A stretch of 64,000 bases of DNA from Candidatus Thorarchaeota archaeon (GTDB lineage Archaea; Asgardarchaeota; Thorarchaeia; Thorarchaeales; Thorarchaeaceae). The DNA is taken from contig JAWAQK010000001.1 of NCBI GenBank assembly GCA_038893995.1, forward strand, positions 43,776 through 107,775. Direction: 5' to 3'. A program made the translations under genes and the position numbers. Below the pieces are notes generated by a model. The model was given only the letters and a program-made list of their open reading frames with translations. It did no database searches and was not told where the DNA came from. Below, piece after piece: positions 9,702-25,649 of the stretch. Every line of letters starts with the position of its first letter. Position 1 is the first letter of the stretch.

Positions 9702-10556
9702 CTATGACTGCTCGTCCTCAACTACCGAAGCTATTCGAAGGGACCTTACAATCTCCTTGCACCGGGTTCTCAGTGTCACCTCGGTCACTCCGGCACTGAG
9801 CGCAATGGTCGCCTGGGGAATCCAGCAGTTGAGGTGTCTTCCTGCCAAGTAGATGGCCGCAGCCGCCATACCCCACGGATCCCTTCCAGCGACAAGTCCT
9901 CGCTTCTTTGACTCCTCGACTATGTCACACGCGTGCTTCACAACTTCGGTTCTAAGGTGCAGCTCTGCAGCCACACTCCTCACAGCCGCAGTCGGGTCAG
10001 GAGGAGGCGGTCTCAGGTGTAGCGAGCGGGCAACGATCCTGAATACCCTTTTGAGACGCTCTTCTGACACTCCAGCCATGCTTGCAACTCTGCCTAATTG
10101 TACAGGCTCTCCGGACATCCTACAGGCCGCATACACGGCAGCAGATACCAGTACGTCTCTGGATCGACCTCGAAGACAAACATGGCCAAACGCATCTCTC
10201 AGTATTCCCGATGCGATGACCCTGGTCTCATCGGGGATACCAAGCTTGAATGCGAGCGAGTGAAGACTGAACAGTGAATCACTCAGAAGACGTCTGCCCC
10301 TACGCTGGGATCTCACAGACAGTCTCCTCGTGATGTCAGTCCTGGGGCTTGTCACGCGACCAGGTCCGGAGTGTGTTGCAAGTGCAGTGTCTGCATTCGT
10401 CGACGTACCTGACGTCGTAGCACGAAGGGCATCCCGACCGGAGCCAGAAACGGACTTGACACTCGGGTCGTGACGATCTGAGGGAGAGTAATAGTCGTCA
10501 AGACGCGACTGCCAGTTGTGGTCTAGGTGGTCAGACTCACCGTCTCGCACTCTCAC
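9702..10556 (-). CDS. TFB/TFIIB-like protein with two cyclin repeats but no N-terminal zinc ribbon or B-reader.
   Basis: Two TFIIB-type cyclin repeats, RDVLVSAAVYAACRMSGEPVQLGRVASMAGVSEERLKRVFRIVARSL and RDPWGMAAAAIYLAGRHLNCWIPQATIALSAGVTEVTLRTRCKEIVRSL. The N-terminal 110 aa is low-complexity (S/T/R-rich) and has no CxxC pairs. Confidence 0.6.
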   Translation of the reverse strand: MRVRDGESDHLDHNWQSRLDDYYSPSDRHDPSVKSVSGSGRDALRATTSGTSTNADTALATHSGPGRVTSPRTDITRRLSVRSQRRGRRLLSDSLFSLHSLAFKLGIPDETRVIASGILRDAFGHVCLRGRSRDVLVSAAVYAACRMSGEPVQLGRVASMAGVSEERLKRVFRIVARSLHLRPPPPDPTAAVRSVAAELHLRTEVVKHACDIVEESKKRGLVAGRDPWGMAAAAIYLAGRHLNCWIPQATIALSAGVTEVTLRTRCKEIVRSLRIASVVEDEQS

Positions 10557-10825: not shown

Positions 10826-12970
10826 TCATCCCAGCGAGTATCTGTATCTGTCAATGAACTCTCGTTTCTTGGAGGATCCCCACGAACTCAGTGATTGGCT
10901 GTAGCCAGTGATGCGCGATATGACCTCGACGCCCACATAACCACATCTCGGGCAGGGTATCCTACTGAGTTCATCAACCGAGTTGAACTTCGTGACTCGC
11001 CAATCGATACCGCCCTGGTAGGAGCACTTTGGACAGACTAGAATGTCTTTGGTGAAAGCCCAATATGCTGCCAGAGTTTCCCGAGCGATCTTGAGGTTGA
11101 GCCTCCACAGAGCATCAGGATCAGGATCTGCCTCACCCAGGAACACGTGTGTCAGTGCGCCTCCATCCATATAGGGATGGAACATGGCCTCTTTCTTGAC
11201 GCGTTCAGTCAGAGGCAGACCCGCACCGACGTAGAGGCAAGTGCTATTCGTGTAGTAGACATCGGGGGCCTCTCCCTTCAGGTATTTCCTGATTCCTGGG
11301 TATAGCCTGTAGTCCTTCATCGCTAGTCGTCCGGCCGCGGTCTCAGCCGGCGTTCGGGTCACACCGAAATGCAGACCAGTTTCCTCCTTGAACTCGTCAG
11401 CCCTGGCCTTCAGGTGTTTCAGCACCTTTATTCCAAAGCGTGTGCCTTCCCTCTCGTGAAGAGGATATCCAGTCACTATCTCAGCCATCTCGTTAAAGCC
11501 CACCGTACCAAGCAGATACTCTCTCCTCGTGACATCAATGAGTGGCTTTCCGTTGGGCTTGGGCTGTGTGTAGAATGGCACACTGCCGCTCTCAATCAGC
11601 TTCTGCATCAGTCGCTTCTTCTCAAGAATGACGCCCTTGCAGAGCTCAATGTACTCGTCAAGCTTGGCAAAGAATCTGGCCTCGTCAGCCCGGCCGAGCC
11701 ACGCCGCACGACCGAAGTTTGGAGTGACCATCTGCGATGCTCCGAATACCATATTTCCTGTGAGGAACTCTTCCATCTCTTCCTCGCTACTTGCGGTCCA
11801 AAGATGGGAACAACAGCTACTACAACCGGCCTCAATGCTCGATCTCCAGTTGAGGTAGTTCTCAAAATAGGGTGAACCAAACTTGGCAGCCAACTCTGAT
11901 ACAAGTCGCCAAGAACCTTCGTGTTCAGGAGTCATGAACTCCTCGCGCAGGACTATGTTCGGCTTGGGGAAATTGAAGCCCTTGCCTCTGGCATCTCCTG
12001 CAATCATGACCTCCATGAATGCATCGAAGAACTCACGTGCCTCCAGGTCAAAATCGCCATAGGTGAGATCAGTGACCTTGCCTCCCGGCAGGACAGCAGG
12101 TACATCGCGCATTATCTTTGGGATTCCCGGGGTCAGATCGATTGATGAGAAGATCACCTGGCCACCACGGGCAACATATTGCTGGGTGAGTGTGAATATC
12201 AGTTGCTGAGCGGCCTGTTTGATCTCCCTAAAGGTGTGGCCTCTCATGAAGGGCGCAAGGAAAGTGTTGTAGAAGAAGAATCCCTGTCCCCCTGCGAATG
12301 AGCTCTGGGCAGCAGCTAGCCATATGGCAGAGTGATTGACGGCGACGTTCAGATGCTGAGCCGGCCCAGCAGCACTCGAATGCATGCCTCCCAGTCCATC
12401 AGGTGCGATTCCCAGAAGGAGTACCTGGCGCAGGTCCCATGTCGCACAGTAATCACGTGTGGAGAAATACTCTCTGTCCTTGATGTAGATGTCACCCCTC
12501 AGGTGTGCATCGGCCAGCTTGGGGGGAATAGTCAGATAGCAGTGTTGCTCCATGACCTGGTCGTGGACAAGTTTTGCAATCGTCTCGGGGTTGCGCATGA
12601 GATTGGCATTCGACGTGAATAGCCCAGGACTGCTTATGAGTTGGTTCAGGTCATAGATGGGTATACCGACCCGTGTATACCTGATACGCTCTGCCTCCAG
12701 CCCCATTTCCGCCAAGACACTGTTGCACATCTCACGTATCAGGGGACCAGAGAGAAACTTGATTCCGGAGGCGGCAATCCGATCCATCACCTTCAGTGCA
12801 ACTGTTCGTGCAATGGTTTCACTCATGCCGGTCTCGCGCACTAGGCTGCCCACTATACGGCTGGAGTCGAATGGTTCCATTGTGCTGCTTGTAGTACGCA
12901 CCTGGGGGAGCTTCTTCTCCCTGGACTTGACGCTCTCCAAGTCAGCACCGGTTTCTGTGATCTCGGTCAT
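10826..12970 (-). CDS. nrdD: Anaerobic (class III) ribonucleoside-triphosphate reductase with an N-terminal ATP-cone.
   Basis: 714 aa. ATP-cone region (SRIVGSLVRETGMSETIARTVALKV). C-terminal Zn site (CPKCSY...CPRCGY) and glycyl-radical motif (SRITGYSQ). Confidence 0.85.
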   Translation of the reverse strand: MTEITETGADLESVKSREKKLPQVRTTSSTMEPFDSSRIVGSLVRETGMSETIARTVALKVMDRIAASGIKFLSGPLIREMCNSVLAEMGLEAERIRYTRVGIPIYDLNQLISSPGLFTSNANLMRNPETIAKLVHDQVMEQHCYLTIPPKLADAHLRGDIYIKDREYFSTRDYCATWDLRQVLLLGIAPDGLGGMHSSAAGPAQHLNVAVNHSAIWLAAAQSSFAGGQGFFFYNTFLAPFMRGHTFREIKQAAQQLIFTLTQQYVARGGQVIFSSIDLTPGIPKIMRDVPAVLPGGKVTDLTYGDFDLEAREFFDAFMEVMIAGDARGKGFNFPKPNIVLREEFMTPEHEGSWRLVSELAAKFGSPYFENYLNWRSSIEAGCSSCCSHLWTASSEEEMEEFLTGNMVFGASQMVTPNFGRAAWLGRADEARFFAKLDEYIELCKGVILEKKRLMQKLIESGSVPFYTQPKPNGKPLIDVTRREYLLGTVGFNEMAEIVTGYPLHEREGTRFGIKVLKHLKARADEFKEETGLHFGVTRTPAETAAGRLAMKDYRLYPGIRKYLKGEAPDVYYTNSTCLYVGAGLPLTERVKKEAMFHPYMDGGALTHVFLGEADPDPDALWRLNLKIARETLAAYWAFTKDILVCPKCSYQGGIDWRVTKFNSVDELSRIPCPRCGYVGVEVISRITGYSQSLSSWGSSKKREFIDRYRYSLG

Positions 12971-13320
12971 TTTCCGTTCACCCCGACAGCCTCTCGGACT
13001 TGTTCGACTGTTGGAACCCTACCGCTCCACAAGACTGTCAGTCCCTTGCCATTCTCAACAAGAATGGTGGGCGTTGATGCAATAAAGACTTGTGCCTCTA
13101 ACAGTCTGTACTCGAAGTCAGGGTCCATCTCATCAAGATCAACTTCCTTAACAGACACACACGTTCCCTCGAGGGCCTCAGACAGTACCAGCTTTGCAGC
13201 TGGACAATTGACGCACCCCTTCTGTGTGATCAGATAGACCGTAGTCAAGTCAGCTTGTCCTCCCGACGACATCTGCAAGCACCCGGCGCCTGTATTGATC
13301 ACAGGTACTGGAGATGACAC
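12967..13320 (-). CDS. Glutaredoxin/NrdH-like redoxin.
   Basis: CVNC active site preceded by a beta-strand (TVYLITQKGCVNCP). Overlaps the nrdD start by 4 nt. An alternative start at the internal Met (13272) gives a 101-aa protein. Confidence 0.6.
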   Translation of the reverse strand: MSSPVPVINTGAGCLQMSSGGQADLTTVYLITQKGCVNCPAAKLVLSEALEGTCVSVKEVDLDEMDPDFEYRLLEAQVFIASTPTILVENGKGLTVLWSGRVPTVEQVREAVGVNGK

Positions 13321-15639: not shown

Positions 15640-17724
15640 TTGGCTCATCTGTACAAGAGATTCGTTGGAGAGAAGGTCGTAGGTCTCCTTGAGAACATCA
15701 AGAACATCAGGAACTGTACAGTGATTGCCCACATCGATCATGGAAAGACGACCCTGACAGACTCCCTCATTGCAGCGTCGGGCCTCCTATCGGACGACCT
15801 GGCTGCGTCTGTGAAGCTCCTAGACTACGATGCCATTGAGCAACAGAGAGGCATTACTATCAAGGCATCCAGCATATCGCTGGTCCATAGGAGGAACGGA
15901 CAGGACTTCCTAATACACCTGATCGACACACCGGGCCACATAGACTTCTCATTCCACGTCACCAAGGGACTCAGGATGGCAGACGGAGCCATCGTCGTGG
16001 TTGACATAGTCGAGGGTATAATGGTACAGACTGAGACTGTGACACGTCAGGCGGCCACTGAACTCGTCAGACCAGTGTTGTTTGTCAACAAGATAGACAG
16101 ACTGATATCTGAGAAGCAATACGGAGCCCAGAGGATCGCGTCAGAGGCGGGTCGAATCGTAACAGAGTTCAACGCAATGCTAGGCAAGTATCTACCCGAT
16201 GAGATCCTCAGTGAATGGGAGGTGTCATTTCGACGAGGGTCCCTGGTCATCGGTTCGGCTCTGGACAAATGGGGAATTGACATCGTTGCACTCATGCATC
16301 GGGCCGGAAACGATCGGCAGCCCAGGAAACTCGAGAGAGCACTCATGGAGATCCTTGAGGATATCGTGTCCCTATACAGAGAGGGTCAGGAGCAGGTCCT
16401 CTCGAGAAGATATCCACTGGCCAGGTGCGTCCTAGACGCAGTCGCTGATAGCGTGCCCAGTCCGGATGTTGCCCAGTCATATAGAGTCAGACACTTCTGG
16501 CGTGGCGATACTGAGTCTGACGTTGGTAGGGCCCTGCTGAGATGCGAGAGAGATACGGGCTGCATAGTGTCCGTGGGCGATGTTCAGTCAGACAGACATG
16601 CTGGGACTGTCGCAGCCGTACGCGTGATGACTGGCAGGCTCACAAGAGGTCATGAACTACGGAATCTGAGGACGGGGAAGGTGTCAAGAACCCTGCAGGT
16701 AGGGCTATTCATGTCCAAGACCAGGGTTCCTGTCGATACAGTCCCTGCGGGAAATCTCGCATTCATCACTGGCATTTCCGAAGTGGCAATTGGCGACACG
16801 CTCGTGGAGGGGGACATGCCCAAGATCCAGCCGCTTGATGAACCTCAGTATCCAACTGAACCCGTCGTCACCTACAGTGTGGAGCCCAGGAACCTCGCGG
16901 ACCTGAAGAACATACAGGAACCAATCATGAGGATGGTCCAGTCGGACCCTTCACTCGAGTTCTATGTGAGTCCGGACTCTGGCGAAAACCTGCTCTCGGG
17001 AGCTGGCGAACTTCACATCGAGATAGTGGTGGAGAAGTTGGCCAGAGAGGGAGTGGAGATAGTCGTTGGGAAGCCGATGGTAGTACTCAAGGAGCAGATG
17101 GCCCACGATGGGGAGACCCAAGAAGCGGGAGGAGGAGATGTCAGCTGGTTCAGGGTCCGTGCCCTGCTCACACCAGAAGGACTTGAGTCACCGCCTCCCG
17201 GTACCGTATTCTCAGATGCAAGACAGGGATGCTACCTAGTGGACCAGACAGGCACCATCAACGCACAAAGTCCGGCGTTCGAGTGGGTGGTCGACGGATT
17301 CAAGACCCTGATACGTAATGGGCCTGTGTCCGGGGAGAGGATGAGACGGTTGACAATCAGGATCGAGGATGCCACGATAGTTGCAAGCACACCTGAAACA
17401 TCGTGGAGGGATGTCACACAGCCACTGATTGATGCGTCTAGGGCCAGCATCCTGAGTGGTAAGCCCATGCTGATGGAGCCATGGACAAGGCTTGAGATCA
17501 ACACCCCTGGCCAATACGTCGGTGACGTGAGTGCAATAGTAGCCCGTAGGGGAGGCAGGATAATCGATCTGACTTCGACCAGGTTCATGTTCAAGATAGA
17601 GGCCGAGATACCAGTGAGACAGTCATTCGGATTCTCGACGGAGCTGAGGACTGCGACATCAGGATGGGCGACCTGGGGCGCGCGCTCGGGCGGATATCGA
17701 CCAGTCAGCAATGATAGATCATGA
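15640..17724 (+). CDS. Divergent EF-2/EF-G-family GTPase paralog.
   Basis: G1 AHIDHGKTT, G3 DTPGH, G4 NKID and five-domain length (694 aa). Domain IV reads EDATIVASTPETSWRDV with no His at the diphthamide position. It lies 5 bp downstream of the acyltransferase gene. Confidence 0.8.
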   Translation: MAHLYKRFVGEKVVGLLENIKNIRNCTVIAHIDHGKTTLTDSLIAASGLLSDDLAASVKLLDYDAIEQQRGITIKASSISLVHRRNGQDFLIHLIDTPGHIDFSFHVTKGLRMADGAIVVVDIVEGIMVQTETVTRQAATELVRPVLFVNKIDRLISEKQYGAQRIASEAGRIVTEFNAMLGKYLPDEILSEWEVSFRRGSLVIGSALDKWGIDIVALMHRAGNDRQPRKLERALMEILEDIVSLYREGQEQVLSRRYPLARCVLDAVADSVPSPDVAQSYRVRHFWRGDTESDVGRALLRCERDTGCIVSVGDVQSDRHAGTVAAVRVMTGRLTRGHELRNLRTGKVSRTLQVGLFMSKTRVPVDTVPAGNLAFITGISEVAIGDTLVEGDMPKIQPLDEPQYPTEPVVTYSVEPRNLADLKNIQEPIMRMVQSDPSLEFYVSPDSGENLLSGAGELHIEIVVEKLAREGVEIVVGKPMVVLKEQMAHDGETQEAGGGDVSWFRVRALLTPEGLESPPPGTVFSDARQGCYLVDQTGTINAQSPAFEWVVDGFKTLIRNGPVSGERMRRLTIRIEDATIVASTPETSWRDVTQPLIDASRASILSGKPMLMEPWTRLEINTPGQYVGDVSAIVARRGGRIIDLTSTRFMFKIEAEIPVRQSFGFSTELRTATSGWATWGARSGGYRPVSNDRS

Positions 17725-17728
17725 GAGC

Positions 17729-20032
17729 TCAGGAACGTATGTAGGACCTACGGTTGAGGACCGAACCGAGATGGACCATCACTCTACGCTCCACCATCGC
17801 AACACCATCCATCATCCGGACTGCACGAGAGATATTCGAGAGCACTGCATTCATGTACGGTTGTACCCTTGTCGGCTCTCCTTGAGCCATCATCCCTATG
17901 TAGGCATTGGTTATCTTTACTAGTCCTAGCCAGTCCTCGGGAAGTAGGAATGAAGACTCAAGGAACATATCATCTGATGGAATGGTTTCGGTGTGATCCA
18001 CAGACACCTCGTACTGAACCTCAAGGGCACTTAGAAGTCGCGAGAGCATATTTGTGAACGACGTTGCAACTGAGAGAATGAACTCACGAGACTCTGAGAT
18101 CGATGAGTCTTCTGAATGACATCTTCCGAATGACACGGCAGCTTGATGCAGCAGAGGAGCCAGTTCCTGGTGATTCCTGTTCTCGAAGAAGAGTCGGATT
18201 CCACTAGCCAGCAGGGCCTGGCCCTCCCAGTATCTTGTCAGGACGGGGTCAATATCATGTACCGAGAACTGCTCAGGACTGACGATGCCACTGACTGTTT
18301 CCGTACCAAGAGGTTGGATGTTTATCTTTGCTGTAGCAAAGGCCGCCATCAGCCTACCTACATCTCTGAGTTCAGAGTTGCGCTCCACGAGACTGAGGGC
18401 CCTTCTCTTGAGTTGGAACCAGTCACCGAACATCAGAGGCACAGCGAGTGATATTCCTTCAACGATCGAGGGACTGTCAGGAGGGCACAAGTCAAGGATC
18501 ATCCTATCCAGATCAAGAATGACCCTGCGCAGTCGCTCAGGAATGAATAGTCTATGCCTCAGAGAGAGCCAGGCAATATCGTACAATGCGATTGCGGCCT
18601 CGACAAGAGCACGCGAGTCAGAGGGAAAGAGTCGCATGTAGCGCAGTAGAGATTCACTCAGGAGATCGTTCGCACGGTCATCAATCGTTTCGGACTCACA
18701 GATTGCCGCGAGGCCCAATCCAACCATGGAGCTCAGTAATGCAATCTCCAGGCATTGACCCTTGTTGAGTAGAGATGTCCTCATCTCTACAGAACGCTGA
18801 AACGACTCAACTGCGGCAGACCGAAACTCTGCAGACTCCGAGAGTAGACAGGCCCAGCCAATAGCATGCAGACAACTGGCGATCTCAGACATCATGTCGT
18901 TCTCTGGAGACTTCAGGTCGTCTGCGACTTTCTGAGCCCGGCGGAGGTAGTCGATTGCAAGTGCTGTGCCGTCATCACTTCCGGTCAGGCTGTGGGCATG
19001 GCCGAGACCTACTAGGCAGCGCAGCAATGCCATCCGCTGCTCTCTTGTCGGGTCCTCGATCGATTCATAGACTGCGAGAGCCGCGTTCAGGCGTTCTACG
19101 GCCTGGGGTATCGCCTCCCGCCACCCACCAATGAGTATCGTCGAACCTACTAGAAGATATGCTGCCGCGAGATCGCCCCTGGTCATAAGACCTGCATCCA
19201 CGCTTCTCTCGTACTCCTGCAGTGCACGGTCAGCAAGGTCACGGGCAGTCTGATAGCTCACACCTTCGTCTCGCGTCTCATTTATCGCAAGCTGGAGAGC
19301 CAGTTGAATCCGTGATGCGGGCGGGAGTTCGGAGCCCATCTCTGATTCAAGCTGTTTCAGTAGACTCCTGGAGCGATCGAAGAGTTCCAGGTCAGTAAGG
19401 ACGGAGGCGAGGTCCAGGGTGAGGTCCAGCAAGAGGTCTCTGAATCCCAGCTGTCGTGATACTGAGAGTAGCCGGTCCAGGAGTGGTTCGGCACACTCTG
19501 CAAGGCCTTCATCCATCAGGGACCTGGCCAGGTAGTGCACCTCGGCCACTGCCAACTTGGTGAAGGATATCTGGTCACGGGCGATGATCGAGTCTAGCGT
19601 ATGGAGTGTTTCGTCAGCCAGGAATGCCAAGAGGGGACGTAGACCATGCCCTAAGGAGACTGACATGGACTGGCCCAGCTCACCAAGCAGGTCAATCAGA
19701 ATTGGCAGAGCCTCAAGATCGGGAAGGTCCTCCGCCGCCGTACGTCTGTACTCATTGGTGAACCTGGTGTCCAGTAGAGATATCAGCTCTGACAGCTCCG
19801 ATGTCTTATCAAATGAGTGACGCACGATGAGTTCAAGGAACTTGTAGTTTGCAAGTGCCGGCCTTCTGAGAAGCACTTCCTCGAGGGCTCGTGCCAACTC
19901 ATGACCCAGTTCATGAGAGTCGGGGGAGAAACGTGAGATTCCTTGAAGTGCAGCGAGACCATCGTCGAGGGAGACAGATGCACACAGTAGGTCCCTCAAG
20001 ATTGTCCGAATCCTTGGATCCAAACAGTTCAC
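17729..20032 (-). CDS. Large helical-repeat (TPR/HEAT-like) hypothetical protein.
   Basis: 767 aa, Leu/Ala/Glu/Arg-rich, predicted all-alpha, no catalytic motifs. Sits 47 bp downstream of the KaiC-like pair on the same strand. Confidence 0.5.
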   Translation of the reverse strand: MNCLDPRIRTILRDLLCASVSLDDGLAALQGISRFSPDSHELGHELARALEEVLLRRPALANYKFLELIVRHSFDKTSELSELISLLDTRFTNEYRRTAAEDLPDLEALPILIDLLGELGQSMSVSLGHGLRPLLAFLADETLHTLDSIIARDQISFTKLAVAEVHYLARSLMDEGLAECAEPLLDRLLSVSRQLGFRDLLLDLTLDLASVLTDLELFDRSRSLLKQLESEMGSELPPASRIQLALQLAINETRDEGVSYQTARDLADRALQEYERSVDAGLMTRGDLAAAYLLVGSTILIGGWREAIPQAVERLNAALAVYESIEDPTREQRMALLRCLVGLGHAHSLTGSDDGTALAIDYLRRAQKVADDLKSPENDMMSEIASCLHAIGWACLLSESAEFRSAAVESFQRSVEMRTSLLNKGQCLEIALLSSMVGLGLAAICESETIDDRANDLLSESLLRYMRLFPSDSRALVEAAIALYDIAWLSLRHRLFIPERLRRVILDLDRMILDLCPPDSPSIVEGISLAVPLMFGDWFQLKRRALSLVERNSELRDVGRLMAAFATAKINIQPLGTETVSGIVSPEQFSVHDIDPVLTRYWEGQALLASGIRLFFENRNHQELAPLLHQAAVSFGRCHSEDSSISESREFILSVATSFTNMLSRLLSALEVQYEVSVDHTETIPSDDMFLESSFLLPEDWLGLVKITNAYIGMMAQGEPTRVQPYMNAVLSNISRAVRMMDGVAMVERRVMVHLGSVLNRRSYIRS

Positions 20033-20079
20033 CCGCGATGCGGGTTGACTATTTCATTGGACTGTTAAAGACTTCCGTA

Positions 20080-20787
20080 TCAGCTGAGTCTGAACTCGAC
20101 CCACGCGCGCTTGGTCTCAGTCCCTCTCATTCTCTCCATCCGCACGAAGAACTTGGGAGTATCGCTAGTATCATCCACCCTGAATCTCAGGACCGCATCT
20201 GCGGAGTACGCGAAGCTGGCATACGTCTTGTCGTCATGTACCCCCTCCTCGAGAATGTACATGATACTGTGAGAACCCTGAGTCAGTCGACCGCTGAGTC
20301 TTTGCACGGCCTGAGGTAGAGCTGCAGCACTGGAACTCATGATGAGTGTCGTCAGGCTGTCAACCACGACTCTTGCAACTACAAGTTTCTCCAGCGCCTC
20401 CGTGAGGACGATTCCAAGCTCTGTTATGTCGTCGACCTTTGAGAGTGAGTAGGGACTTGTGCTCTTGACGCCCATCCGGTCCGAATACCCATCTACAAAG
20501 GTGAACATACCATTTCGCTCGTGCTTCTCGATCGGCCAACCATGTCGGCTCATGTCGTTTCGTATCACTCTGGGAGATACATCTGTCGTCACAAAGACCG
20601 CAGGGAAACCCAGCACTAGCCCCTCGGCGAGATATGCCTCGGCATACGTGGTCTTTCCAGAGCCTATCGGCCCCAGTAGCAATATCGACTGTTGAGTCAG
20701 TTGGCCAAACTCGACCAGGTCTCCTAATGTGGGGCTCACCTTGACAGGGTTGCGTTCGTCGATTCGACTATCATCTCGAGCCGTCAA
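20080..20787 (-). CDS. KaiC/RadA-like single-domain RecA-superfamily ATPase.
   Basis: Walker A LLLGPIGSGKTT. Walker B region VVVDSLTTL. 235 aa. Confidence 0.7.
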   Translation of the reverse strand: MTARDDSRIDERNPVKVSPTLGDLVEFGQLTQQSILLLGPIGSGKTTYAEAYLAEGLVLGFPAVFVTTDVSPRVIRNDMSRHGWPIEKHERNGMFTFVDGYSDRMGVKSTSPYSLSKVDDITELGIVLTEALEKLVVARVVVDSLTTLIMSSSAAALPQAVQRLSGRLTQGSHSIMYILEEGVHDDKTYASFAYSADAVLRFRVDDTSDTPKFFVRMERMRGTETKRAWVEFRLS

Positions 20788-20814
20788 TCAATTCACCTCT
20801 CGGATCTAGCTGAT

Positions 20815-21558
20815 TCAGCTGCCGGGGCTTATCTCAGTAGGCCAGACCCGAATACCCTCGTCAGTGATTCTCATGGAGTGTATCCTGGAGCTGTGCTTGG
20901 ATCCTCGGAGCTTCAATACCTCGATCGAACGGGAACGCGACGTGTCGCTTATCTTCTCGTTGTAGAGCACAATGACGCCTGATGCAAGGAAGGCTTCGAT
21001 GTCAAATACGCCCAGTCCGGTGTCCTGTGCAGGTATCTCTGATGTCAGCAGCAGGGTGGCACCTGTGCCTGTTATCTTGGAGCACATCTTGAAGAACTCT
21101 TCTCTGAGAATGTCTCTGCTCCTGAACTTGTATGCAAGGATTGATAGGGTGTCTATGACTACTCTCTTGGCATTCACCTTCTTCATGTTGCTCAGGATGA
21201 TTGACACTAGTGCCGACAGGTCGAAGCTCGGATACTCCTCCACCATGACGGGAGAGGGACGTGACGGTGACAGGTCTACGATCGCCAGCATACCCTGGTT
21301 CTCTAGTTTCTCGAGGTCCATGCCAAATCTCAACATGTTGCGCTTTATGAGGTGAGGGGGCTCCTCGAGAGTGACAAGCACGCCAGGTTCTCCGTATTCG
21401 GTGGCTCCCTTATACAGGAACTGGTTTGCGAGAATGCTCTTCCCAGTACCTGCCTTTCCTGCAATGAGTATGGTGTCACCTCTGGGAAAACCTCCCTCTA
21501 TCAGTTCGTCGAGTCCCGGGATTCCGGTCTTGACTCTATCAATTTGGTAGCCGGTCAT
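20815..21558 (-). CDS. KaiC/RadA-like single-domain RecA-superfamily ATPase.
   Basis: TGIPGLDELIEGGFPRGDTILIAGKAGTGKS (Walker A) and VVIDTLSIL (Walker B). The start is either the internal Met (MTGYQIDRV, 21558) or 21588. Confidence 0.7.
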   Translation of the reverse strand: MTGYQIDRVKTGIPGLDELIEGGFPRGDTILIAGKAGTGKSILANQFLYKGATEYGEPGVLVTLEEPPHLIKRNMLRFGMDLEKLENQGMLAIVDLSPSRPSPVMVEEYPSFDLSALVSIILSNMKKVNAKRVVIDTLSILAYKFRSRDILREEFFKMCSKITGTGATLLLTSEIPAQDTGLGVFDIEAFLASGVIVLYNEKISDTSRSRSIEVLKLRGSKHSSRIHSMRITDEGIRVWPTEISPGS

Positions 21559-21910
21559 CTGGAACACCTCTACGTTTTCTGTATCCAAGGATCATCCTGA
21601 GGATTGACTCTGGTTCGGGTATGCCGGTTATGGAGGCACCTCCGATCATTATCGTCGGAGCAGCGAGTACCCCATAGTACTGTGCGACTTCTGGCTCTTG
21701 GACCACATCAATCTCTCGCAGAGTGAACATGTCAGTATCAAACTCGCCAAGTATGTCTAGCAGTACCTGTTTAGCTCGCGGACAGAAGGGGCATTCATCG
21801 TGGCTAAAGAAGAGGACCTCAACCTTCGAGGATTCCTTCCCATCTTTGGAGCACCCTTCTTCATCAGACGGAGCCAACGAGACGCACTCCCTGTCCTGTG
21901 TGACCTCCAA
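21539..21910 (-). CDS. Thioredoxin/glutaredoxin-like protein (CPFC active site).
   Basis: VLFFSHDECPFCPRAKQVL ... PTIMIGG is a thioredoxin-fold pattern. 123 aa with an acidic N-terminal extension. Same operon as Roadblock and the KaiC-like genes. Confidence 0.55.
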   Translation of the reverse strand: MEVTQDRECVSLAPSDEEGCSKDGKESSKVEVLFFSHDECPFCPRAKQVLLDILGEFDTDMFTLREIDVVQEPEVAQYYGVLAAPTIMIGGASITGIPEPESILRMILGYRKRRGVPDDRLPN

Positions 21911-21948
21911 CTGTGGAGCTGTGCTCTATTGAATGTTATTGCGTCGGC

Positions 21949-22335
21949 CTAACGACGATATGCCATCATCTTTCGTATCTTGGTCGCCACTTTCCCGAGC
22001 GACCGAGAGTGATATCTGAGATGCCGAGGCATCACTGCGGCCAAGAGGAAGGACTGCCCACTGTCGACCAATATCTTGCGGACGACAAACTTTCCCTCCG
22101 AACAACGAATGGAGATCTCGGAGAGCTCCCCAAGCAGCAGTTCGTTCCGGAGACGCTCAACGGAGGAGGCCACATAGCCAGACATTGCAGCAACGATGTC
22201 ACGGTTTGTGGTGGGGGATGCTGAGGATGCCATGAGTAGGCCGTCATCTCGCGCAAGGATTGATGCGACATAGCCTCCGTTTCTGACCATGTCATCAAGC
22301 ATCTCGGTCAATGCCCTGTAGTCAGGTCTTTCCAT
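21949..22335 (-). CDS. Roadblock/LC7 (MglB-like) domain protein.
   Basis: 128 aa. GGYVASILARDDGLLMAS...AAMSGYVASSVERL...SEISIRCSEGKFVVRKILVDSGQSFLLAAVM matches the Roadblock/LC7 alpha-beta-alpha pattern. Confidence 0.7.
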   Translation of the reverse strand: MERPDYRALTEMLDDMVRNGGYVASILARDDGLLMASSASPTTNRDIVAAMSGYVASSVERLRNELLLGELSEISIRCSEGKFVVRKILVDSGQSFLLAAVMPRHLRYHSRSLGKVATKIRKMMAYRR

Positions 22336-22482
22336 GTGAATCGCTCCGTCATCCCTAATCGATTGCGCATTTTTCTTTTAAAGGATGAGGTCACATCCCC
22401 TGCTCCAGTATCTTGCAGTTGCACTCACAACATAGTTTTAAGTTAGGCTCCAAATGTGAGTCAGACGAGGATGTGATGTCGT

Positions 22483-23031
22483 TTGACTGCCGAATATAGA
22501 TTCAAGGTGGTCATGCTCGGTGATGGCGCGGTAGGGAAGACTGCGCTCACCAACATGTTCACGCAGGGCCACTTCATCTCCGAATACAAACGGACGATTG
22601 GGTCAGACTTTGCAGTCAAACGTGTCTCAGTACCCCAGAGGAATGCACAGGTCACTCTCCAGGTATGGGACTTGGCAGGACAACCACGATTCGAGATAGT
22701 CAGGCAATCTTTCTATCGTGGAGCAAGAGGAGGATTGCTTGTCTACGATGTCACACGACGCAGGACATTCCTGAACCTCGATCACTGGAGACAGGAAACT
22801 AAGAACAGTCTGAGTCGCGAAATACCCCTGGTCGTGGTCGCCAACAAGGTGGATCTGACAGGCGCACGCGTCGTGACGAGGGAGGAGGGAGAACAGTATG
22901 CTGCCAAGAGCGGACTCATATATGTGGAGGCAAGTGCACTCACAGGCCAGAACGTAGAGGATGCATTCGTGGAACTATGTGTCGAGATGATCGACGAGTC
23001 AAAGTCGGAAGCGAGATCTCAGACAGGTTGA
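22483..23031 (+). CDS. Rab/Ras-like small GTPase (Asgard type, no C-terminal prenylation motif).
   Basis: G1 GDGAVGKT. Switch I YKRTIGSDF (Rab-like TIGxDF). G3 WDLAGQ. G4 NKVDL. G5 EASA. 182 aa. Confidence 0.8.
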   Translation: MTAEYRFKVVMLGDGAVGKTALTNMFTQGHFISEYKRTIGSDFAVKRVSVPQRNAQVTLQVWDLAGQPRFEIVRQSFYRGARGGLLVYDVTRRRTFLNLDHWRQETKNSLSREIPLVVVANKVDLTGARVVTREEGEQYAAKSGLIYVEASALTGQNVEDAFVELCVEMIDESKSEARSQTG

Positions 23032-24179
23032 CCCTTCAAGAGGCCTAGATGCTTCTTGCACTGCCAGACGATATAGAAGATGGTCTTGTCCTGCAACACC
23101 TCACTGCCATATTGTGACATCAGGGACTCGAACCTGCGTACCAGATCAACCCTTCTCTCGCCTGCAGTATCGCTCTCGATCTCTCGCAGCAGTGCCTGGA
23201 GGGGCTCAATCATTGCAGTCCTGTCGACGATTTCCCACCGCCTTATTGCTCCGGTGGACTCACAGGTCAGGAACTCGTTCGAATCTGCCACCCATTCTAG
23301 AGAGTCCGGTTCGCCCCGTGTCATTGTCTCGGCCTGCCTAGTGAAATCACTTGTCCGCCACAGGAAGATGTTCTTGTCAGCAGACCCAGACGCAATAAGG
23401 GACCCATCGTGGTTGAATCCCACACAGCGGACCTCTTGTGTATGTCCTGTGAGTGTCTTCTCATGTCTGAGCTGCCCGTCTGAGGCGTCCCAGACCATGA
23501 CCGTCTGATCAGAAGATGCCGAGGCCACCCTGGTACCGTCCCTGGAAAAGCGCACCTGATGCAGTGCAGATCTGTGTTCTTGGAGCCACTCTATCCTCTC
23601 ACCAGTCGTCGGATCCCAGAGACCAATCATCGCATCGACACCACCGGACACTATCCGATCTCCACGAGGATCCCAGTCGCAGGACACTACGTATAGAGAA
23701 TGGCCCTTGAGCTGTCTCAGTGGCTTGGAACTGCCGATGTCCCACACCATGAGGGTCGTATCGCCACTCGATGACACTAACCTATCGCAGTCGGGAGAGA
23801 AGGCGAGCGACAATATGGGATACCGATGACCCTCGAGACGACATATCAACTCTGCACTCCTGACGTCCCAGACCTTGATAACCCTGTCAACACCACCAGA
23901 CGCTATCACATCACTCCGGGGGCTGAATGCAAGGGCTGTGCACAGGAAGTCGTCTGTGATTCGCTGGACCTCTTGGCAGTCTCTCGCATCGTACAGACGT
24001 ATTGTTCGGTCCTGATGAGCAGCAGCGAACATGCGTCCCACTCTGTTGATGGTGAAACGACGAATGATGTCGTCAGCAGTTTCCGCCTCGGGTCTTAGCA
24101 GCCTAGGACGAAGAAACAATGATGGTACGGACTCCGTCATCTTGCTCACCAGAGTGATTGTCATCGTCTCAAGCAGCAT
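23019..24179 (-). CDS. WD40 repeat (7-bladed beta-propeller) protein with a C-terminal helical tail.
   Basis: Seven GH...WD-type repeats (VWDVRS, MVWDIGS, IGLWDPTT, VMVWDASD, IFLWRTSD, IRRWEIVD). The C-terminal roughly 70 aa are non-WD. Starts 82 bp downstream of the second Rab-like gene on the same strand. Confidence 0.8.
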   Translation of the reverse strand: MLLETMTITLVSKMTESVPSLFLRPRLLRPEAETADDIIRRFTINRVGRMFAAAHQDRTIRLYDARDCQEVQRITDDFLCTALAFSPRSDVIASGGVDRVIKVWDVRSAELICRLEGHRYPILSLAFSPDCDRLVSSSGDTTLMVWDIGSSKPLRQLKGHSLYVVSCDWDPRGDRIVSGGVDAMIGLWDPTTGERIEWLQEHRSALHQVRFSRDGTRVASASSDQTVMVWDASDGQLRHEKTLTGHTQEVRCVGFNHDGSLIASGSADKNIFLWRTSDFTRQAETMTRGEPDSLEWVADSNEFLTCESTGAIRRWEIVDRTAMIEPLQALLREIESDTAGERRVDLVRRFESLMSQYGSEVLQDKTIFYIVWQCKKHLGLLKGQPV

Positions 24180-24261
24180 ATCTAAAAAGAGTTGTGAGGA
24201 TGCGATGGGCCCCTCAAGTCAGTATGGTATGGGTGGCTGGTGGTCCGAAGATGAGCATGGC

Positions 24262-24834
24262 TCAGAGAGTACTCTGGCCAATCGACTCGACCATCATGAT
24301 GATGAGCTCAATGAATGCCTTCTCCACGTTGTGTCCGGTCTTGGCAGATGTTTCAAGGAAGACCGTGCTGACCCCACTTTCTCTGAGCGCCTGTGTGAAC
24401 TTCTCACCCTCCTGCGTCGTGACTATCGATCCCTTCATGGCAGGATTGTCCTTGAACTGGTCCCGGAGATCAGTCTTGTTGCCGATGACTACAATAGGAA
24501 TGGTCTTGCCTGTGTTCGCCCAGCACTCCTCAAGCCAGTTGGGAAGATTATCAAATGACGAACGTTCCACAGTCGAGTATACAGCCAATGCTCCCTGGGC
24601 ACCCTTGTAGAAGGTTGATCGTACGTTCTTGAAGTGAGCCTGTCCAGCAAGATCCCATATCTGGATGTGCACCTCTGTGCCACTCTCAAGTGCCAGTTTT
24701 TTCACTGCGAAATCGGCGCCGATGGTGACCATGTATGAGGCCTTGAAACCTTCGCCCATGTAGGTCCGACGGAGCGAAGTCTTACCTACTGAGCCGTCGC
24801 CCATGAGAACTATCTTGAACAATGCTCTCGGCAT
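24262..24834 (-). CDS. Rab/Ras-like small GTPase.
   Basis: G1 GDGSVGKT. TIGADF. WDLAGQ. GNKTDL. ETSAKTGHNVEKAF. 190 aa. Confidence 0.8.
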   Translation of the reverse strand: MPRALFKIVLMGDGSVGKTSLRRTYMGEGFKASYMVTIGADFAVKKLALESGTEVHIQIWDLAGQAHFKNVRSTFYKGAQGALAVYSTVERSSFDNLPNWLEECWANTGKTIPIVVIGNKTDLRDQFKDNPAMKGSIVTTQEGEKFTQALRESGVSTVFLETSAKTGHNVEKAFIELIIMMVESIGQSTL

Positions 24835-25079: not shown

Positions 25080-25649
25080 ATGCCACATCATCGATGGAAT
25101 CTCCTCAAGGCACTTCCCGAGAGACCACCGATGGCGTTGTTCGCTCGGGACACAGTCCCAGCGGCTCTGTATACGGTGGCCCCGCTGACTAATGCTATCA
25201 ACATTCACTTTCGGTCATCCGTCCCCGACGAACACGTCTGTGAGAATGAACATGAGTCAGAAACAAACCCCAACTATGACGTCATCTTGAGGAAACTACA
25301 ACCTGTAAGGAAACATCGTATCAGAACCCCCTCCTGGAGTTGGATTGAGATGGGTAGGACAGCCCATACCTTTCACGATCTCCTCGCAATGGAGGAGAAA
25401 CGCTGGAGTCAGTTCAGACGCGTACTCAGACAGTCGAAGCGGGAGTTGGTGGACAGGGTGTTCGACTACGCCAGAAAGAATTCTGATGCTGGCTCAATGG
25501 TATTGACACTCCGACCAATGGAAGTCGTACTCATGACTGCAGTCATTGAGATCCTCGACGAGCTGACCAGACTTGATGAGCGAGTCGGTATGCTGGAGAG
25601 GAGGGTCATGGGAGGTGCCAGCAGCGAAGAAGCGAGGCTGGCTACTTGA
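25080..25649 (+). CDS. Hypothetical protein.
   Basis: 189-aa ORF upstream of polB, overlapping it by 76 nt. No motifs recognised. The true start may be an internal Met (MGRTAHTFHDLL). Confidence 0.3.
   Translation: MPHHRWNLLKALPERPPMALFARDTVPAALYTVAPLTNAINIHFRSSVPDEHVCENEHESETNPNYDVILRKLQPVRKHRIRTPSWSWIEMGRTAHTFHDLLAMEEKRWSQFRRVLRQSKRELVDRVFDYARKNSDAGSMVLTLRPMEVVLMTAVIEILDELTRLDERVGMLERRVMGGASSEEARLAT

Follow-up and report, generated by a model that had tools for sequence, protein, structure and literature searches.

The window analyzed here is a 64,000-nucleotide stretch of the genome of a Candidatus Thorarchaeota archaeon (assembly GCA_038893995.1, contig JAWAQK010000001.1, positions 43,776 to 107,775), and the subject of this report is a group of five consecutive minus-strand genes within it. 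They code for a Roadblock/LC7 protein (Robl), a small thioredoxin (Trx), two KaiC-like ATPases (KaiC1 and KaiC2) and a large helical protein of the tetratricopeptide repeat (TPR) type (H767), and a gene for a Rab-like GTPase (Rab1) diverges from the Roadblock gene. An earlier note on this DNA had described the five as one tightly packed operon and proposed a GTPase-regulatory module wired to an ATPase/phosphorylation switch and a redox sensor. All five genes were present in the open reading frame (ORF) listing, the family named for each was upheld by Pfam and NCBIfam searches, and the divergent gene did encode a Rab-like GTPase (Ras PF00071, E 5e-51, 172.9 bits). The span of 20080 to 22335 given to the group held four of the genes, while that for the helical protein lay outside it (Table 1). 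As developed below, we read the locus as a Thorarchaeota signaling neighborhood of two adjoining modules, a Rab1-Roadblock switch and a thioredoxin-KaiC1-KaiC2-TPR module, which may meet through the Roadblock protein; our confidence in this reading is evenly divided.

Alignments of orthologues led to revision of two start codons, that of Trx to the TTG at 21877 and that of KaiC1 to the ATG at 21558. The stretch upstream of the Trx TTG is non-coding, because in-frame stops occur there in six other species; selenocysteine insertion or another recoding of these stops was considered and rejected, because their positions differ and a conserved Shine-Dalgarno-like element with a TTG/GTG start comes after them. 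H767 probably starts at the TTG at 20023, which gives 764 amino acids (aa); the NCBI entry that is 100% identical to this protein is 764 aa long as well. With the revised starts, the window has 71 nucleotides (nt) between the Roadblock and thioredoxin genes, an overlap of 20 nt between thioredoxin and KaiC1, 27 nt from there to KaiC2 and 47-56 nt between KaiC2 and the TPR gene; the earlier figure of gaps of at most 50 bp or overlaps was roughly right but inexact. Across about 55 species, the median spacers were ~87 nt for Roadblock-thioredoxin, 25 nt for KaiC1-KaiC2 and 61 nt for KaiC2-TPR gene, and the thioredoxin stop overlapped the KaiC1 start with a median of -4 nt over 56 loci. No further Roadblock, KaiC or thioredoxin paralogues were found in the 64-kb window.

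Table 1. Features of the cluster and of its immediate neighbors (window positions)
Feature	Position	Strand	Evidence
H767, all-alpha TPR-type solenoid, 764-767 aa	17729..20032	-	weak TPR_12 match, AF2 model
TATA-like box between KaiC2 and TPR gene	20063..20071	-	alignment of 56 loci
KaiC2, divergent single-domain KaiC-like paralogue	20080..20787	-	PF06745, DUF7504
KaiC1, single-domain KaiC-family ATPase, 247 aa	20815..21558 (listed ORF 20815-21588)	-	PF06745
Trx, small Mj0307-type thioredoxin/glutaredoxin-like protein, 112 aa	21539..21877 (listed ORF 21539-21910)	-	Glutaredoxin/Thioredoxin_3, TIGR00411
17-nt conserved DNA motif, Roadblock-thioredoxin spacer	21925..21941	-	locus alignments
Robl, Roadblock/LC7 protein, 128 aa	21949..22335	-	PF03259
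Roadblock-Rab1 divergent intergenic region with two conserved TATA-like boxes	22336..22482		sequence, 48-locus alignment
Rab1, Rab/Ras-like small GTPase, divergent from Roadblock gene	22483..23031	+	Ras PF00071
WD40 beta-propeller protein, 386 aa, convergent with Rab1 (13-nt overlap)	23019..24179	-	WD40 PF00400, E 3e-50
Rab2, second Ras/Rab-like GTPase, upstream of WD40 gene	24262..24834	-	Ras PF00071, E 6e-44

The Roadblock protein and the Thor-Rab GTPase

The assignment of the 128-aa protein to the Roadblock/LC7 family was borne out by its sequence and by its predicted fold. It matched PF03259 with 26.9 bits against a gathering score of 23, and a profile of its orthologues retrieved Roadblock and LAMTOR2 chains of the PDB with E values from 8e-6 to 4e-4. 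The AF2 (AlphaFold2) model, with a pLDDT of 88, displayed an alpha-beta-beta-alpha-beta-beta-beta-alpha order (helix 6-20, strands 24-29 and 34-39, helix 45-66, strands 73-78, 81-89 and 95-103, and helix 110-125), which is the full MglB/LAMTOR2-type arrangement including the C-terminal helix. In Foldseek comparisons, this model gave TM scores of 0.83 with Roadblock3 of MK-D1, 0.8 with MglB and 0.79 with LAMTOR2.

Rab1 matched PDB entry 7EZB, "Thorarchaeota Rab," with an E value of 8e-79, and 7EZB is 100% identical to the GTPase gene divergent from the Roadblock gene at the corresponding locus (L008) of Thorarchaeota SMTZ1-45 (LRSL01000056.1). Judged from these matches, Rab1 is the positional orthologue of the crystallized Thor-Rab. 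In the structural study of that protein, Arg37 was placed at the position of MglA Arg53, the intrinsic arginine finger, and was lacking from the other Thor Rab paralogues; the unassisted GTPase activity was low and Rab-like, implying a GTPase-activating protein (GAP) and/or a guanine nucleotide exchange factor (GEF); and the GTPase core was found to be Rab/Ras-like rather than MglA-like, with no prenylatable cysteines at the C terminus (PMC10933270). The Roadblock crystallized there, KXH72322.1, is a different gene from the locus Roadblock, and a term search of the same paper gave no mention of KaiC. In our alignments, the switch-I Arg37 was invariant in all 50 of 50 Rab1 orthologues, with Ile or Val at this position in Rab2, and the Rab1 C terminus, ...DESKSEARSQTG, likewise had no Cys, that is, none of the prenylatable cysteines of eukaryotic Rabs.

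These features recall the MglA/MglB pair of Myxococcus and Thermus, in which MglB acts as the GAP of MglA by positioning MglA residues. The likeness lies in the full MglB-type fold of the locus Roadblock (TM ~0.8), in the adjoining small GTPase with a switch-I arginine at the Arg53 position, and in the low unassisted activity reported for Thor-Rab. Unlike the MglA/MglB system, the locus has a GTPase with a Rab/Ras-like core, its two genes are divergent with no mglBA operon, and thioredoxin and KaiC-like genes follow the Roadblock gene in the same direction; we know of no mglBA locus with such followers. The strongest hint at a mechanism that the locus offers is the MglA-like arginine in the one Rab whose gene adjoins that of an MglB-type Roadblock, and the presence of this Thor-Rab orthologue strengthens the earlier reading of the Roadblock protein as a GTPase regulator.

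The locus also resembles Ragulator-Rag and the Asgard LAMTOR1-like/Rab-like/DENN operon, in that genes for a Roadblock platform and a Rab-like GTPase lie together in an Asgard genome, and LAMTOR2 (of LAMTOR2/3 in Ragulator) was among the best sequence and structure matches of the locus Roadblock. It differs from both in that DENN and longin proteins are absent, as is any Rag-type GTPase ending in a Roadblock domain, and in its partners, which are Trx, the two KaiC-like ATPases and the TPR solenoid; the present cluster was found in Thorarchaeota only, rather than in most Asgard lineages. The Asgard Roadblock-Rab-DENN operon described by Liu et al. (bioRxiv 10.1101/2020.10.19.343400) is a different one.

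Ideas on the origin of eukaryotic membrane and nutrient signaling give a central place to the small GTPases and Roadblock proteins of Asgard archaea, yet a regulator has so far been assigned to none of these GTPases; genome layout is of little help for such pairing, according to the authors of the Thor-Rab structure (PMC10933270). The locus offers a concrete pair, the sole Thor Rab with the MglA-like arginine head-to-head with an MglB-type Roadblock, and this pairing is directly testable because Thor-Rab has already been purified and crystallized.

The KaiC-like ATPases, the thioredoxin and the TPR solenoid

KaiC1 was the best conserved protein of the cluster (74-85% identity) and matched PF06745 with an E value of 1e-71 (241 bits). 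Against the clock KaiC chains of the PDB, its E value was 5e-74 when the single sequence was used and 3e-89 with the profile. It aligned over its full length with CI, the KaiB-binding domain (203 bits versus 96 for CII), and was closer to KaiC than to the archaeal single-domain proteins PH0186 and PH0284. Walker A (GKAGTGKS), the catalytic Glu-Glu pair (LVTLEEPP) and Walker B (VVIDTL) were invariant, and its residues aligned to K52/T53 and E77/E78 of KaiC. Against the clock KaiC models TIGR02655 and PRK09302, this single-domain protein reached 159 and 203 bits, below the respective cut-offs of 546 and 408. We predict KaiC1 to be a catalytically intact CI-like ATPase. Its best PDB matches were 8ZN5, 8ZN6 and 8ZN7, all named "KaiC" (8ZN5, E 3e-89), and they scored ~50 bits above Synechococcus KaiC.

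KaiC2 is a more divergent relative, matching PF06745 with an E value of 5e-28 (98.6 bits) as well as DUF7504, with PH0284 as its best PDB match (E 3e-22). In its hhalign comparison with KaiC1 (probability 98.4, 28% identity), T-D was aligned to E-E: KaiC2 keeps Walker A (GPxGSGKT) and Walker B, and an invariant Thr68-Asp69 (FVTTDVSP) takes the place of the catalytic glutamates. From what is established about KaiC/RecA-family catalysis, KaiC2, with its Walker motifs kept and Thr-Asp in place of Glu-Glu, is predicted to bind nucleotide with little or no hydrolysis, and it is probably a hydrolysis-impaired KaiC-like paralogue with a degenerate active site.

The phosphorylation switch proposed in the earlier note was not sustained. 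The best stretch of KaiC2 in KaiC chains was the CI region only, its C-terminal part remaining unaligned, and no CII match or phosphosite equivalent was detected in it, equivalents of Ser431/Thr432 not having been specifically sought. The autophosphorylation sites and A-loop that mark CII were indicated neither for KaiC1, which scored higher with CI than with CII, nor for KaiC2. KaiC1 thus resembles the non-phosphorylating CI domain, KaiC2 lacks the catalytic Glu pair, and the switch is unsupported because neither protein shows CII-type features.

That the two ATPases might be RadA paralogues of DNA repair, which the earlier note had named as a reading that would overturn its own, was rejected as well. 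For KaiC1, the RadA paralogue SSO2452 scored E 4e-14 and the RadA models E 0.003 or weaker, as against E 1e-64 to 1e-89 for KaiC, a match tens of orders of magnitude better, and the KaiC CI matches were far the stronger. A broader version of this idea would make the ATPases aRadC/Rad55-like recombination mediators and Trx a servant of nucleotide metabolism, which would fit the anaerobic ribonucleotide reductase gene nrdD, thyA and polB in the vicinity. The NCBI name of the KaiC2 family, "RAD55 family ATPase," the weak RadA and DnaB matches, and the nearby NrdD with its own redoxin, ThyA and PolB speak for it. We nevertheless consider it very unlikely: KaiC1 is far closer to KaiC than to the SSO2452 or RadA models, NrdD already has an overlapping redoxin (12967-13320), PolB and NrdD are 3-7 kb distant, encoded on other strands and transcribed in other units, and Pfam/NCBIfam searches detected no DNA-binding domain in any of the five proteins.

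Trx carries a CPFC motif and matched the Glutaredoxin and Thioredoxin_3 families of Pfam. Its best NCBIfam match was the MJ0307 thioredoxin model TIGR00411, with 43.4 bits against an equivalog cut-off of 92.75, and by this score it represents a related subfamily rather than an equivalog. The orthologue profile matched 1FO5 (Mj0307) first in the PDB (E 2e-16), followed by archaeal protein disulfide oxidoreductases and many thioredoxins. The CxFCPRA motif (C29, C32) and the cis-proline motif LPT (P74) were invariant in 24 of 24 sequences, and both cysteines were present in 56 of 56.

The order of the genes raises the question of a KaiBC-like timer or hourglass, in which KaiC1 and KaiC2 would be a split two-tier KaiC, and Trx, a redox-active stand-in for KaiB, would bind the CI-like ring after ATP hydrolysis, such that a slow ATPase cycle sets the Rab1/Roadblock switch. 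As in the kaiBC loci of cyanobacteria and proteobacteria, a thioredoxin-fold gene lies directly upstream of, and overlaps, a gene for a close KaiC CI homologue with E77/E78 equivalents, and Trx has weak KaiB similarity (E 1e-4 to 6e-3). Unlike kaiBC, however, the locus has single-domain ATPases from two genes, KaiC2 has no catalytic glutamates and aligns to CI with no CII match detected, and there is no KaiA, CikA or SasA-like gene in the neighborhood, nor any output kinase. The upstream protein, moreover, is an Mj0307-family CxxC thioredoxin: it scored 16.8 bits with KaiB PF07689 (gathering score, 27) and 19.7 with TIGR02654 (cut-off, 145), and in its profile search KaiB chains appeared at E 1e-4, below dozens of thioredoxins. 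A CxxC motif is, to our knowledge, not a feature of KaiB. The sub-threshold scores and the invariant CxxC rule out Trx as KaiB, and we hold the timer to be the least likely of the explanations considered.

The earlier suggestion of a redox sensor stood insofar as the CxxC of Trx is invariant, but neither ATPase offers a conserved thiol to it. In a cysteine census of the cluster proteins, the Trx CxxC was present in 100% of orthologues, Robl Cys78 in 98%, Rab1 Cys166 in 96% and TPR Cys395 in 95%, and no conserved Cys was found in KaiC1 or KaiC2. Trx would therefore be either a redox-state-dependent subunit of the ring or the reductant of a thiol in a partner protein.

Archaeal KaiC-like ATPases (PH0284, PH0186, ArlH and CirA-D) share with the locus the layout of a single-domain ATPase, a degenerate paralogue and putative input or adaptor proteins. 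A "KaiC-like signaling hub" that includes inactivated KaiC domains was reportedly proposed by Makarova, Galperin and Koonin in 2017 (cited via PMC5847659). In the searchable literature, we found no archaeal KaiC-like ATPase with a partner set of Roadblock, Mj0307-type thioredoxin or TPR solenoid.

The H767 family comprised 88 homologues, all of ~765 aa, 38-50% identical and nearly all labeled Thorarchaeota, and a search of its profile against 1.84 billion representative proteins returned three full-length clusters, the rest being partial TPR-like matches; the family is restricted to Thorarchaeota. The AF2 model (pLDDT 87.9, predicted TM score 0.81) was all-alpha with 33 helices arranged as a tandem helix-turn-helix super-helix, and the Pfam signal was a weak TPR_12 match only. 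We read H767 on the basis of this model as a lineage-specific TPR adaptor and putative interaction scaffold with no recognizable catalytic domain. Compared with the TPR scaffolds LGN/Pins and Rap/NprR/PlcR, H767, with its 33 helices, has over twice the length and lacks any GoLoco, phosphatase or helix-turn-helix module, and at 11-15% identity the resemblance is one of fold only.

Predicted transcription units and conservation across Thorarchaeota

Between the divergent Roadblock and Rab1 genes, the element TTTAAAAG lies at 22375-22382 (minus strand), ~44 nt upstream of the Roadblock ATG, and CTTAAAAC (minus-strand reading; GTTTTAAG on the plus strand) at 22435-22442, ~45 nt upstream of the Rab1 start. 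An alignment of 48 loci revealed conserved boxes of TTTA(A/T)TAGG and ATTTAAATC plus a GGAG before the Roadblock ATG, with TTTA(A/T)TAGG ~45-50 nt ahead of that ATG and a mirror-image TATA-like box on the Rab1 side. We infer that these boxes are promoters.

The Roadblock-thioredoxin spacer holds another conserved motif, of 15-17 nt, which reads CAATAACATTCAATAGA in the window and has the consensus TCAAAACATTCAAGTGA (e.g., L007, 8060-8074). A conserved AGGAG and the TTG/GTG start codon of the thioredoxin gene follow ~30 nt downstream of it. The sequence AACATTCAAG occurred in 40 of 55 loci and ATTCAA in 46 of 55, once per locus and exclusively at this spacer, and it was near-invariant across species whose proteins are 40-60% identical, with no canonical TATA box. 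Since it gave no Rfam match and no conserved pairing or fold as an RNA element, the motif appears to act at the DNA level, probably as a non-canonical promoter inside the cluster or as the binding site of a regulator.

In the KaiC2-TPR spacer, a TATA-like box, TCTTTAACA in the window with the consensus GAAACCTTTAAAGC, was recognized, and a TATA-like element was present in 33-38 of 56 loci; a run of at least four T followed KaiC2 in 35 of 56, often ahead of the box. This box is predicted to be the TPR gene's own promoter. The KaiC1-KaiC2 spacer, by comparison, contained a Shine-Dalgarno-like GAGGTG alone and no promoter motif, and thioredoxin, KaiC1 and KaiC2 look to be co-transcribed and translationally coupled. 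Because promoter-like elements precede the Roadblock, thioredoxin and TPR genes, we predict three transcription units, namely, Roadblock, thioredoxin-KaiC1-KaiC2 and TPR. Of the five-gene operon proposed earlier, the common direction, the short spacers and the tight thioredoxin-KaiC1-KaiC2 unit remained, but the internal promoter-like motifs and the T-run after KaiC2 spoke against a single operon.

Conservation was assessed by scanning one genome per species of the Genome Taxonomy Database (GTDB) with the helical-protein alignment, which yielded 69 loci, all of them in Thorarchaeota-type metagenome-assembled genomes; gene order was read by tblastn of the window proteins, and the counts below take loci with enough flank. 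The common order was PolB, Rab2, WD40, Rab1 (reverse), Roadblock, thioredoxin, KaiC1, KaiC2, TPR protein, EF-2 paralogue (reverse) and hexapeptide transferase, and a single order and orientation was observed in all 45-49 Thorarchaeota species loci of sufficient length. KaiC2 was present in 49/49 loci, KaiC1 and thioredoxin in 47/47 each, Roadblock in 45/45, Rab1 in 42/44, WD40 in 39/43 and Rab2 in 37/38; the Roadblock protein was also found on a Logan contig with identical gene order. The arrangement is far beyond chance, and the loss of gene order in related genomes that would have spoken against the earlier note was not seen. In two species, Rab1 is missing beside Roadblock, through a synteny breakpoint in one (L040) and a deletion in the other (L045), and in both Roadblock is still attached to thioredoxin-KaiC.

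One 3.7-kb contig binned as "Candidatus Hodarchaeota" (JBHLJV010000237.1; L071) carried WD40, Rab1, Roadblock, thioredoxin, KaiC1 and KaiC2 in the Thorarchaeota order, with a Roadblock identity of 68%, and is probably a mis-binned Thorarchaeota contig. Several loci labeled Lokiarchaeota, Hermodarchaeota or Promethearchaeota behave in the same manner.

Proposed organization and neighboring genes

In the two-module reading, we infer the physical interactions and the direction of signaling as follows. By analogy with MglA/MglB, a Roadblock dimer would bind Rab1-GTP, serving as its GAP or platform by positioning Arg37 and Gln67. KaiC1 and KaiC2 would form a mixed or stacked ring with KaiC2 as the regulatory, non-hydrolyzing subunit, and Trx would either be a subunit of this ring that depends on redox state or reduce a partner thiol (Roadblock Cys78, TPR Cys395 or Rab1 Cys166). 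The TPR solenoid, made from its predicted own promoter, might act as an adaptor recruiting partners or targets, with the WD40 protein, a conserved neighbor, as a possible further component. The two modules could communicate through Roadblock, which is a plausible meeting point because it was never separated from thioredoxin-KaiC in the sampled loci, while Rab1 was gone in two. Cross-talk between the Rab-Roadblock pair and the KaiC module is plausible, and the case for a link between GTPase and KaiC ATPase in this close relative of eukaryotes is so far circumstantial.

Several findings weigh against this proposal, a rival to which is that Rab1/Roadblock, thioredoxin-KaiC1-KaiC2 and a lone TPR gene are two or three unrelated modules, co-inherited in a rearrangement-resistant block with no GTPase-ATPase cross-talk. 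The cluster is part of a 17-kb block that runs from NrdD (10826) to PolB (27888) and comprises at least 14 genes, not all in the same direction; it is syntenic in >90% of species and holds functionally unrelated housekeeping genes, including a redoxin-NrdD pair, ThyA, an AsnC-type helix-turn-helix regulator, hexapeptide transferase, the EF-2 paralogue and PolB, and where H767 meets the EF-2 paralogue, the junction is just as invariant as those within the cluster. Owing to this block and this junction, adjacency within Thorarchaeota is weak evidence of function. The conserved promoter-like elements, one for each unit, argue for separate units; the Roadblock and Rab1 genes are divergent and not co-transcribed as mglBA is; and Trx is a bona fide Mj0307-type redoxin, not KaiB. 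No instance of the cluster was found outside Thorarchaeota, either in the TPR profile search or in word-indexed searches with KaiC2 and Roadblock, which returned Thor-type orthologues only. A mirror-tree analysis with a partial Mantel test over 30 species gave no specific co-evolution signal, and it is uninformative because the correlations track the divergence of each protein (e.g., EF-2 paralogue versus H767, r = 0.85). The block, the separate promoter-like elements and this outcome also count for co-inheritance, as does the general lack of informative operons among Asgard GTPase and Roadblock genes (PMC10933270).

Against mere co-inheritance, five co-directional genes with spacers of at most 90 nt in every species, despite a TPR protein of 37-50% identity, are a stronger association than is usual for unrelated genes; loss of Rab1 from the site leaves Roadblock and thioredoxin-KaiC together; and the conserved cysteines open to a coupled thioredoxin, besides Rab1 Cys166 and WD40 Cys374, occur in Roadblock and the TPR protein, not in the ATPases. 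Weighing both sides, we regard co-inheritance as the main rival, less probable than the two-module reading but with a fair chance of being right.

The two-module reading can be carried further, to one integrated machine in which a slow KaiC1/KaiC2 ATPase ring, redox-gated by Trx in the place that KaiB has in clock systems and held on the TPR scaffold, would set the GTP/GDP cycle of the MglA-like, arginine-finger Rab via the Roadblock dimer. We consider this unlikely; if true, it would give archaea a GTPase regulator that senses redox state and energy, anticipating the Ragulator-type control of small GTPases in eukaryotes. Should the two modules interact at all, they would provide the first link of KaiC-type ATPase signaling and thiol redox state to a Ras-superfamily switch, and should they not, the locus would still contribute two novelties, a thioredoxin-KaiC-iKaiC operon and a TPR family found in Thorarchaeota alone. 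Full-text searches that paired KaiC with Roadblock or Asgard found no description of the cluster, and KaiC goes unmentioned in a 2026 structural survey of Asgard proteins. The component families are known; what appears to be new is their combination, together with the Thorarchaeota-only TPR family and the pairing of Thor-Rab with Roadblock.

A defense island was also considered and rejected, as PADLOC gave trivial P-loop or WD40/HEAT-ARM noise alone, with four of six proteins having no match.

The conservation of the 17-kb block is unusual for the level of divergence among Thorarchaeota; its synteny stops at the TFIIB gene (9702-10556), which was syntenic in 0 of 18 loci. The EF-2/EF-G-like GTPase paralogue of the block (694 aa; 15640-17724, plus strand) and the TPR gene converge, and in nearly all species ~4 nt separate the two. 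A second thioredoxin-fold gene, with a CVNC motif (12967-13320, minus strand), overlaps the start of nrdD (10826-12970, minus strand) by 4 nt and forms with it a second redoxin-client pair, in a translational-coupling layout like that of thioredoxin-KaiC1.

On the other side of the cluster, a 407-aa HEAT-repeat gene lies on the opposite strand between Rab2 and WD40 in most loci (e.g., L002, 4435-5658, minus strand), and the lineage of the window, which does not have it, shows an 82-nt gap at 24180-24261. Orthologue distances of Rab2 (L002-L070) were uncorrelated with those of all other block proteins (Mantel r ~0; others, 0.4-0.9). Some of the best matches taken as Rab2 are actually Rab1 where Rab2 is missing, 15 of 50 having the switch-I Arg, and the odd distance signal may be an assignment artifact or reflect paralogue exchange. 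Farther out, a DUF8156 ORF (25080-25649, plus strand) overlaps the start of PolB; tblastn found this ORF in 7 of 38 loci, its neighbors being conserved, and it is either fast-evolving or partly mis-called.

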